Source of the DNA: Eledone cirrhosa
Lineage: Eukaryota
Length of the DNA stretch: 64,000 bases
Assembly: GCA_964016885.1 (NCBI GenBank)
Contig: OZ024766.1
Location: forward strand, 15,376,001-15,440,000
Reading direction: 5' to 3'
Shown: one piece after another, positions 19,041 to 21,800 of the stretch
How positions within the stretch are numbered: position 1 is the first letter of the stretch
Layout: the number at the start of each line of letters is the position of its first letter
Made by a program: the position numbers and the translations under genes
Notes under the pieces: model-generated
What the model was told of the DNA's origin: nothing
What the model saw: the letters and a program-made list of their open reading frames with translations, nothing else
The model's database searches: none

Positions 19041-19433
19041 ACAAAACCTCTACGTAGTCTTTCTAACTGCTAGAAATAGCAGCGATATTATCCATTACAA
19101 CTTCGTTTTTTTGTTTAAAATATCCAAAGTTTAGTTATGAAATCAACAGCAAGTCCTTTGCACAGACTTCGGAATAAACTCGAAGACCGTCAAAATATCA
19201 TTCTCCTTCTCTCTCTCTTTAAACAAAAAATAGCTGCTTTCAACCTTAACGGGATCTTCTGAAACTCATTATTTTAATCAATAGTTGCTCTACGGCTTAT
19301 ATATACATATATATATATATATATATATATATATATATATGAAGTAATTCCGGCGGAAAAGTCCAGGAAAAAAGAGTGCTCTATGTAGGCAACAGAGCTT
19401 AATTATTATTATGTAATAAACAACATAAGGCAA

Positions 19434-19499
19434 TTATTCCATTTACCAGTGGTTTCTTAAAAGCAAAAGGTTTTGCTTTCAATCCTCAGAATGAAAAAA
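19434..19499 (-). ncRNA. Type I hammerhead ribozyme motif
   Basis: Minus strand reads ttttttcatt-CTGAGGA-ttgaaagcaaaa cc ttttgcttttaa-GAAAC-cactg-GTA-aatggaataa. Stems I and II pair; stem III accactggt is near-palindromic. Confidence 0.8.
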
Positions 19500-20175
19500 T
19501 CCTGGTTTGTTTATTGAATTTGGATTTTAAAAAACAAAAATGCAAACTATATGAAAGTGAGGCTGGAGAAGGGAGAAGGAAAGGAAAAATAAAATAAAAC
19601 TACACATGCAAACACACACACAAAAACACAAAAGCATACATACACACACATACATATATATATATATATATATATATACACATACACATATATATTAAAA
19701 AGAAACATTGACACTCCTATGATAAATCAACAGCCTTGAACTCCTTTCCTGCTCTTTACTTCTGCTACGGTTTTTATTTTGCTGATTCTACGTTCTGTAC
19801 TCTTGTATATTTACTTATTTTTTTCTCCCTTACCTCCCCTTATATTTTACCTTTTCTTATGCCCCCCCCCCTATATATTCTTTTTGCCTTGCCCTTCACA
19901 TACCTATGTGTATGTATATTTGTGTGTATATATATATATATATATATGTATATATGTATGTATATATATATATATATATATATATATGTATATGTATATA
20001 TATATATATATATATATATATGTATATGTATATATATATATATATATATATATATATATATGTATATGTATATATATATATATATATATATATATGTATA
20101 TGTGTGTGTATGTGTATGTGTGTATATATATGTATATATTTGTGTGTGTGTATGTATATGTGGATAAACCAGGGT

Positions 20176-20241
20176 TTTTTTCATTCTGAAGATTGAAGGA
20201 AAAATTTTTTGCTTTTAAGAAACCACTGGTGAATGGAATAA
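20176..20241 (+). ncRNA. Hammerhead motif, degenerate copy (GUG triplet, predicted inactive)
   Basis: ttcatt-CTGAAGA-ttgaaggaaaaattttttgcttttaa-GAAAC-cactg-GTG-aatggaata. Confidence 0.7.
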
Positions 20242-21338
20242 TCACTTATGTTGCTTTATTACTTTACTACTATATATACGTATATGTAAGGTTCATATGA
20301 ATTATCTAAGACTGAGTTTTACACATACACACATGTATGTGTGCGTGTATGTGTATGCATGTGTATATATATGTATGTATGTATATATATATATATCTGT
20401 ATGTGTATATATATATATGTATATATATATGTGTGTATATGTATGCGTGTGTATGTATATATGTATGTGTGTGTGTGTTTGTGTTTGTATTTGGTTGTGC
20501 GTGTTTATGATATGTACGTATTTGGTTGTGTATAATTGTTTAGCTATGTATGTATATGTGTGTGTATGTATACGTATGTGTGTGTGTGCGTTTATATTTA
20601 TGTATATATATATATGTATATATATATATATATATATATATATATATATGTGTGTGTGTGTGTATATAATTACATATACATATGTGTGTGTATATATTGT
20701 ATACGTGTGCGTATTTGTGCATGTATGTGCATGTATGTTTTTATGTATTTGTATATGTATATTTATGTGTGAGAGTGTGTGTATGTGTTTACGATTTCGT
20801 ACGTATGTATACGTGCATTTGTGTGTATTACTTACCACGCGTGTCTGTCCAGTTAGCTGCCTTATGTAACGGTGTCAAAAAAATGTTTTAATATATATAT
20901 ATATTTATTTGCGTGTGTGAATATGTAGAGGAGTGCATTTATGTATGTACGTATGTATATATGTATGATTGTGTGAATATATGTATGTGTATATGTGTAT
21001 ATATATATATATATATATATATATATATATATATATATATGTGTATGTATATGTGTGTGTGTATGTGTATGTGTATGTATGAGTGTATGTATGTGTATAT
21101 GTGTATGTATGTGTATGTGTATATTTGTGTATGTATATATATATGTGTATATGTATATATGTATATATATATATATATATGTGTATGTGTGTGTATGTAT
21201 GCTTTTGTGTTTTTTTGTGTGTGTGTTTGCATGTGTAGTTTTATTTTATTTTTCCTTTCCTTCTTCCTTCTCCAGCCTCACTTTCATATAGATTGCATTT
21301 TTGTTTTTTAAAATCCAAATTCAATAAACAAACCAGGA

Positions 21339-21404
21339 TTTTTTCATTCTGAGGATTGAAAGCAAAAACTTTTGCTTTTAAGAAACCACTGGTAAATGGA
21401 ATAA
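21339..21404 (+). ncRNA. Type I hammerhead ribozyme motif
   Basis: ttcatt-CTGAGGA(21349-21355)-stem II(21356-21381)-GAAAC-cactg-GTA(21392-21394)-aatgga. Confidence 0.8.
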
Positions 21405-21800
21405 TTGCCTTATCTTGTTTATTACATAATAATATTTTACATGGTAGACATTATTTGAATTTTGAAAATGTGAGACCAGAGAAATTGCTTCATGTGACAC
21501 TGTAAGAAAACATTAAAGAAAACATTAAAAAATGAAATGTATATCTTCTTCTTTATCATTAAGAATGTCAGCAGCACCACACACACACACACATATATAT
21601 ATATATACAGAGAGAGAGAGAGAGAGAGAAGAGAGAGAAGAGAGAGAGAGAAGAGAGAGAGAGAAGAGAGAGAGTAGTTAATAATAAATACAAAGACCAA
21701 AATCTAGAGAGGGCTCAATAAGATAAGAGTTTTATGTATATATATATATATACATATATATGTATATATATATATATATATACATATATATATATATGTA

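Follow-up and report, generated by a model that had tools for sequence, protein, structure and literature searches.

What kind of element carries the same hammerhead ribozyme motif three times, twice on one strand and once on the other, among simple repeats, and how was it assembled? The question is raised by a non-coding, microsatellite-rich element of about 2 kb (GC 27%) at positions 19404-21434 of a 64-kb window of the Eledone cirrhosa genome (contig OZ024766.1, positions 15,376,001 to 15,440,000; all coordinates below are those of the window). A first-pass annotation had read it as a non-autonomous ribozyme retroelement with traits of both Penelope-like elements (PLEs) and retrozymes. In the present analysis the element is likely to be a non-coding Penelope-type insertion with inverted, hammerhead-bearing ends that face outward. 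By the features tested, it is not an autonomous PLE, a retrozyme, or a DIRS element.

The 3' end of the element, or right arm, lies at 21137-21434 on the plus strand (298 nt) and consists of microsatellite up to about 21240, a pyrimidine-rich block up to about 21335, the hammerhead, and a 40-nt tail. The left arm, at 19404-19695 on the minus strand (292 nt), is an inverted, 5'-truncated copy of this end, with about 85-100 nt of microsatellite, the pyrimidine-rich block, the hammerhead, and the 40-nt tail. In both arms the 3' end faces outward and stops 40 nt beyond the cleavage position; the outermost 1-5 nt of the left arm are ambiguous, an ATT-type tract lying at the boundary. In the arm-to-arm alignment, 287 of 292 aligned bases are identical (98%), with 5 substitutions and 6 gap columns, all 6 of which are 2-nt slips within the repeat part, and the Jukes-Cantor (JC) distance is 0.017. 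With the calibration of PMC13282606, if it holds here, an age of roughly 2-3 million years would follow for the insertion. The first-pass annotation had recognized the arms but gave them about 270 bp, which is short of the roughly 295 nt found here. PLE insertions have been described with a partial tandem and, adjoining the 5' end, an inverted, 5'-truncated copy; their repeats contain hammerheads, and a tail of 30-40 bp is present (PMC8557442, PMC8969392). An inverted, 5'-truncated copy adjoining the 5' end, with 3' ends outward, is present in this element as well, and the Penelope-like reading of the arms offered earlier agrees with the layout of published insertions. The 40-nt tail on both arms, the ATT tract, and duplications of only 0-3 bp may correspond to the optional tail and AT-rich target of PLE insertions, an optional tail being a feature defined over many copies.

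Inverted repeats of about 295 nt with 98% identity around a non-coding interior could also belong to a non-autonomous DNA transposon (a foldback element, a MITE [miniature inverted-repeat transposable element], or a Mutator-like element) that had captured a hammerhead-bearing end in its long terminal inverted repeats. Some boundaries allow a TA or 3-bp duplication to be drawn, and TA-targeting Mutator-like elements have been reported (PMC4486113). No target-site duplication (TSD) longer than 3 bp was found at the 14 boundary positions tried, however, and there is no 4-15-bp TSD, no 8-11-bp TSD, and no TTAA duplication around the element. A fixed TSD, which had been named earlier as the mark of DNA-transposon repeats, is thus lacking in the 4-15-bp range, while matches of 2-3 bp in AT sequence can be read either way. 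Truncation would leave the inner end of the left arm within microsatellite, which is where it lies. A DNA transposon would also leave unexplained the ribozyme 40 nt from each end, the third, internal copy, and an independent foldback at 46902-47072, and this origin is considered very unlikely.

The hammerhead motifs themselves are of type I. In the left arm the motif is at 19434-19499 on the minus strand (core start 19489), and in the right arm at 21339-21404 on the plus strand (core start 21349); both have an intact core and the triplet GUA, with A at position 17 (19444 and 21394, respectively). The internal motif, at 20176-20241 on the plus strand (core start 20186), has GUG at 20229-20231, with G at position 17 (20231), and one broken stem II pair. 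Position 17 of the two plus-strand motifs is 1163 nt apart. The two direct copies and one inverted copy, their spacing, and the decay of the upstream triplet to GUG were all correctly placed in the first-pass annotation. Each motif is built from a 7-bp stem I, CUGANGA, an A/U-rich stem II of 11-12 bp, GAA, and stem III ACCACUGGU, which is palindromic (ACCA-C-UGGU); the long A/U stem II and near-palindromic stem III had likewise been noted. Stem II of the arm motifs is closed by U10.1-A11.1. A type-I motif with a short palindromic helix III in the terminal repeat is a PLE feature, present here as motif and predicted fold, and judged from its sequence the motif is a variant of the PLE minimal hammerhead and not the consensus. 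Compensatory changes at the 10.1/11.1 pair are known in cave crickets (PMC2837043) and U.U at the base of helix II is known in axolotl (PMC7229834).

The arm motifs are not chance occurrences. Their descriptor scores are 23 and 23 (18 for the internal motif), while 150 control windows, shuffled in 2-kb blocks with dinucleotides preserved, gave 4 hits with a best score of 13. A looser descriptor gave 38 hits in 300 shuffles, the best scoring 18 (once), and an 18-nt motif searched with at most 3 mismatches was matched 4 times, where 0.15 matches would be expected. The three hammerhead copies are counted as one family and not as three observations.

PLE hammerheads whose helix III is palindromic have been proposed to act as dimers (PMC4209133), and the predicted folds of the arm motif are in line with this model. 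In the monomer, the active fold is predicted to lie 0.6 kcal/mol above the minimum and stem III has a predicted probability of 0.12. In the cofold of arm motifs, the minimum-energy dimer is predicted to be a double hammerhead with intermolecular stem III (-31.4 kcal/mol), in keeping with the dimer function that the first-pass annotation had cited for PLE hammerheads; the predicted energies are -31.2 kcal/mol for the imposed active dimer and -23.4 kcal/mol for two monomers. By these predictions the arm hammerhead would fold chiefly as a dimer of two molecules, and it may need the protein of the element. The anole PLE ribozyme required its protein, yet was dispensable for insertion in vitro (PMC11167929), and one of nine predicted Xenopus dimers was cleaved in vitro (bioRxiv 10.64898/2026.07.22.740005). 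In the predicted fold of the internal copy, G17 pairs with C3.

The two plus-strand motifs had suggested a non-LTR (long terminal repeat) retrozyme, in which active hammerheads release an RNA of 1163 nt that circularizes and spreads the microsatellite. Their shared strand, type, and spacing agree with this proposal, as does the low GC of 27%, and a retrozyme ancestor of such a kind is possible, since animal retrozymes have been proposed to derive from PLE ends (bioRxiv 10.64898/2026.07.22.740005). The upstream triplet is nevertheless GUG, a site reported as uncleavable (PMC4191386), and one stem II pair is broken. Described animal retrozymes are made of head-to-tail units with a complete ribozyme in each (PMC7229834), whereas at least two consecutive tandem units, each with a complete hammerhead, were not found here; there are no tandem units, and the plus-strand copies share only 97 nt. 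The units described measure 150-450 bp (PMC7229834) or up to 972 bp (bioRxiv 10.64898/2026.07.22.740005). The heterodimer of the two plus-strand motifs is predicted to lack an active fold, and in a read-through RNA the arms would pair with each other (predicted duplex, 92% paired) and sequester the right motif. An active retrozyme is therefore highly improbable. On these predictions the 1.16-kb circle put forward earlier is not expected from the locus, and circular RNA is unlikely.

The interior bears on what was copied. It begins with a unique, pyrimidine-rich block (19696-19900, plus strand), the likely 5' truncation point of the long copy, which is not homologous to the arms (score 23, equalled by 49 of 200 shuffles) and has no match elsewhere in the 64-kb window. 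A (TA)n/(TG)n tract follows at 19900-20165 with TG on the plus strand (35 G vs 2 C), then the internal hammerhead-plus-tail copy (20166-20262, plus strand), a partial direct repeat of 97 nt, and then, at 20263-21136 (plus strand), a non-coding body in which degenerate (TG)/(TA) repeats are interspersed with short stretches of unique sequence. From 20263 to 21240 there are 211 G and 49 C, so that the sense strand carries TG throughout and a single strand bias extends across the whole interior. Alternating purine/pyrimidine runs of at least 10 nt cover 866 of 1441 interior bases (60%); the earlier description of an interior almost entirely of (TA)n/(TG)n without a real open reading frame (ORF) was right about the ORF and overstated the repeats, given this figure and the unique block. 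The roughly 85 nt of repeat at the inner end of the left arm best match the repeat adjoining the right arm (score 144; 106 at the next-best site in the window). Since this match is the best and TG lies on the sense strand throughout, repeat sequence was among the material copied. On this sequence comparison, the copying of the element brought about 85 nt of microsatellite into the inverted arm and repeats travel as cargo, as the first-pass annotation had supposed. The element accounts for 888 of the 3286 long alternating-repeat bases of the window, and the remaining tracts are not tied to its hammerhead family.

The internal copy differs from the arms by 7-8 substitutions and 5 gap columns (JC distance 0.08-0.09), 4-5 times more than the arms differ from each other, and its homology to them is limited to the ribozyme and tail. 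This argues, from the sequence, that the template already contained it, either as an old copy or as a member of a sister family, and that it is not a pseudo-LTR of the same event. By the same comparison it is older than the arms, and its fold predicts it to be inactive. Of the six changes in the 60-nt motif, four are tolerated, at most a hint of past selection (P=0.07, not significant).

No reverse transcriptase (RT) or GIY-YIG ORF was found inside the element. The long stop-free frames there are translations of repeats, and three frames of higher complexity of at least 60 aa gave no Pfam match. The long copy opens, at 19696-19737 on the plus strand, with 13 codons followed by a stop. The last residues of this peptide bear a tentative likeness to the C-terminus of a GIY-YIG domain. 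The ribozyme motifs and junction peptide are absent from the available part of the PMC8557442 supplement, short chance matches aside. A 30-nt motif had no exact match in non-eukaryotic genome contigs and none in phages, and the one 37-nt match in plasmids is judged to be chance. The source may have been a dedicated non-autonomous (or chimeric) family, or else a coding element of which the long 3' region was copied; the two are nearly balanced, with a slight lean to the non-autonomous or chimeric source. The locus itself is probably inert.

For a Penelope-type insertion, the steps leading to this structure can be inferred, while the arms, motifs, orientation, relative ages, copied microsatellite, and absence of ORFs are read directly. 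An RT/GIY-YIG protein encoded elsewhere in the genome would copy the element from RNA. The RNA would span at least 19696-21434 and be bound near its hammerhead-plus-tail end, and the dead GUG site of the internal module would leave it uncut. The protein would nick both strands of an AT-rich site, and reverse transcription would start on each strand 40 nt downstream of the ribozyme cleavage site. One cDNA would reach about 1740 nt and the other would stop at about 292 nt, and the two would be joined at their 5'-truncated ends (19695/19696); priming on two strands, with a long and a short cDNA joined, would give the inverted arms. In the anole, the PLE protein cuts both strands at AT-rich (ATT) targets and extends them, beginning from a position inside the RNA that lies downstream of its hammerhead (PMC11167929), and by analogy we infer that such two-strand activity may explain the inversion. 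A second family at 46902-47072 repeats the outward-facing layout in miniature, and a third is represented by a 140-bp insert at 2482-2621; both support the PLE reading.

Two other routes to the inverted layout were weighed. Related PLE ends could have inserted two or three times independently at one AT-rich hotspot to give the arms and internal copy, the inverted symmetry then being a coincidence. In favor, the internal copy is clearly the older one, the window is dense in hammerhead-bearing ends, and a PLE endonuclease is able to cut its own terminal repeat (PMC11167929). With no other copy of the family in 64 kb, though, two near-identical opposite copies bracketing 1.4 kb are not to be expected, and one strand bias runs through the whole interior; independent insertions are unlikely. 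The other route is a non-autonomous retroelement of the DIRS (tyrosine-recombinase) type, with inverted terminal repeats and an internal complementary region. Three features resemble the DIRS layout (PMC8969392), namely inverted ends, the lack of a TSD, and an internal segment that is the complement of the left arm's start. The internal segment is complementary to the left arm only, however, neither the right end nor its extension having a complement in it, and it lies mid-element and is 8-9% diverged. DIRS internal complementary regions are renewed in each cycle, which also speaks against this origin. A DIRS-type element is scarcely credible.

Several observations weigh against the Penelope-type insertion. 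An autonomous partner with RT and GIY-YIG, of the kind suggested in the first-pass annotation, did not appear in the window: GIY-YIG matched none of 110 scanned ORFs (of 237 candidates, the remaining 127 being mostly alternative frames of elements of the RTE, L1, and Gypsy types), and searching all six frames for PLE motifs gave nothing convincing. The RTs of the window look RTE-, L1-, and Gypsy-like. A covariance model built from the three copies found no further copy of the family in the window. Several boundaries permit duplications of 2-3 bp of AT sequence (TA, ATT, TTA). With its short shared length and divergence, the internal copy is unlikely to be a true pseudo-LTR of the right arm. 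PLE hammerheads of Schistosoma also occur as opposite-strand pairs, but these are 100-700 bp apart (PMC4209133), closer together than the 1.9 kb seen here. The PLE consensus (PMC4209133) includes a G10.1-C11.1 pair and, between 9 and 10.1, a bulged base, both of which the motif lacks. An Rfam scan of the element gives no hammerhead family even at E<=10 and has miRNA hits driven by the repeats, and on the whole window the single hit at the gathering score is tRNA-like. Monomer folding z-scores of -0.9 to -1.4 are no better than shuffles. Stem covariation among copies, which had been looked to as evidence for the ribozyme, did not appear, with 0 of 23 pairs showing compensatory changes among only three close copies.

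The looser descriptor, written post hoc after the motifs of the window had been seen, finds 8 motifs in 5 families in the window against 0.13 per shuffled window, and positions 10.1/11.1 are U-A or U.U in three of these families. Since hammerhead-bearing ends thus appear to be common in this genome, the finding is an ordinary one in kind. At 2482-2621, a TA tract holds a 140-bp insert that has a type-I hammerhead motif (core 2538, GUC) and is flanked by a 15-bp duplication; its empty paralogue at 5102-5116 is the duplicated segment without the insert, and Rfam Hammerhead_1 matches the insert at E 0.043, below the gathering score. The foldback at 46902-47072 is perfect, with 84-bp arms and a 3-nt spacer, and has a hammerhead-like motif in each arm (cores +47014 and -46960, GUA, U.U at the stem II base), 3' ends outward, and adjoining TA repeats. 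At about 22540-22590 on the minus strand, 1.1 kb to the right of the element, there is a hammerhead-like motif with a palindromic ACUAGU stem III, a 7-bp stem I, and U.U at the stem II base. A weak minimal hammerhead-like motif at about 62320-62370 (plus strand; score 9, reached 0.08 times per shuffled window) is possibly decayed or due to chance.

The rest of the window is rich in other repeats. Fragments of a separate inverted-repeat (MITE-like) family occur at 19218-19318, just left of the element, and at 15078-15722 and 47601-47649. On the minus strand, 30880-41869 holds two tandem retrotransposon copies with a zinc-knuckle ORF1, an endonuclease-RT ORF2, and flanking arrays of a 72-bp satellite, presumably of the L1/Tx1-like clade. 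Several broken elements of RTE-like type, in which RT comes with an inserted PHD-finger-like domain, are at 646-1957, 12542-14361, 48750-52074, and 58067-59264; the named eukaryotic matches in a protein search with them are from Hydractinia and Branchiostoma (44-51% identity). A broken Gypsy-like LTR retrotransposon at 53395-56121 (plus strand) has RT, RNase H, and integrase in separate frames. A tRNA-derived family resembling short interspersed nuclear elements and ending in (ATG)n is abundant (21803-22136, 2118-2451, 4759-5086, 6227-6557, 28062-28222, 57750-57887), and its copy at 57751-57808 scores as tRNA in Rfam. Minisatellite arrays at 3645-4105 and 6812-11632, 17862-18793, and 60834-61753 have units of 28, 65, and 61 bp, respectively. 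A 118-codon frame at 44170-44523 (minus strand), possibly a host exon, matches a galactose-binding (F5/8 type C-like) family of Pfam weakly, below cut-off, and a protein search with it found no homologue.

In kind, the element is a further Penelope-type insertion with a mildly unusual ribozyme. It offers a clean example in which outward-facing ends fit two-strand priming by a PLE protein and microsatellite was copied along, and if the family is abundant it would allow a direct test of retroelement-driven microsatellite spread, a genome-wide role that is possible. If the long-stem-II motif with U10.1-A11.1 cleaves, current Rfam models miss it and hammerheads would be under-counted in the lineage. 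A bolder interpretation would make the element a high-copy, protein-free parasite of Penelope, with a body mostly of microsatellite and the hammerhead-plus-tail as its sole conserved part, a major vector of (TG)/(TA) repeats in the genome, and its ribozyme an active variant class without G10.1-C11.1 that is missed by Rfam; this is doubtful. In a partial coverage of the literature on cephalopods, no paper devoted to such ribozymes was found.

Among known systems, the closest likeness is to endonuclease-bearing PLEs (Penelope/Poseidon, Neptune, and Hydra; PMC8557442, PMC4209133, PMC11167929), which share with the element a type-I hammerhead near the 3' end, a short palindromic helix III, and a predicted dimer, as well as an inverted 5'-truncated copy, an AT-rich or (TA)n site, no clear TSD, and a short tail past the ribozyme. 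They differ in having RT and GIY-YIG, in a matching pseudo-LTR where the element has a diverged 97-nt module, and in stem II, which is 6-8 bp with G10.1-C11.1 and one bulge in published PLEs, while that of the element is 11-12 bp, closed by U-A, and without a bulge. In Poseidon the start of an ORF follows the ribozyme, and in the element none does. Metazoan non-LTR retrozymes (PMC7229834; bioRxiv 10.64898/2026.07.22.740005) are also non-coding, low in GC, equipped with type-I hammerheads, and probably PLE-dependent; unlike them, the element is not head-to-tail, has a spacing of 1163 nt, one dead site, and an inverted arm. Non-autonomous Chlamys PLEs such as MRC1 (PMC8557442) are non-coding, PLE-type, recognized by their 3' ends, and of a microsatellite-associated clade, but they come from green algae and mostly lack canonical hammerheads, and the likeness is one of description only. 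O. vulgaris has 31 recently active Penelope-like families (PMC13282606), and Penelope is abundant in shrimp (PMC3124438). Carriage of microsatellite by a Penelope element has already been reported in penaeid shrimp (PMC7878876), where internal simple repeats are copied along, as here, and then change length, although the shrimp element encodes a reverse transcriptase.

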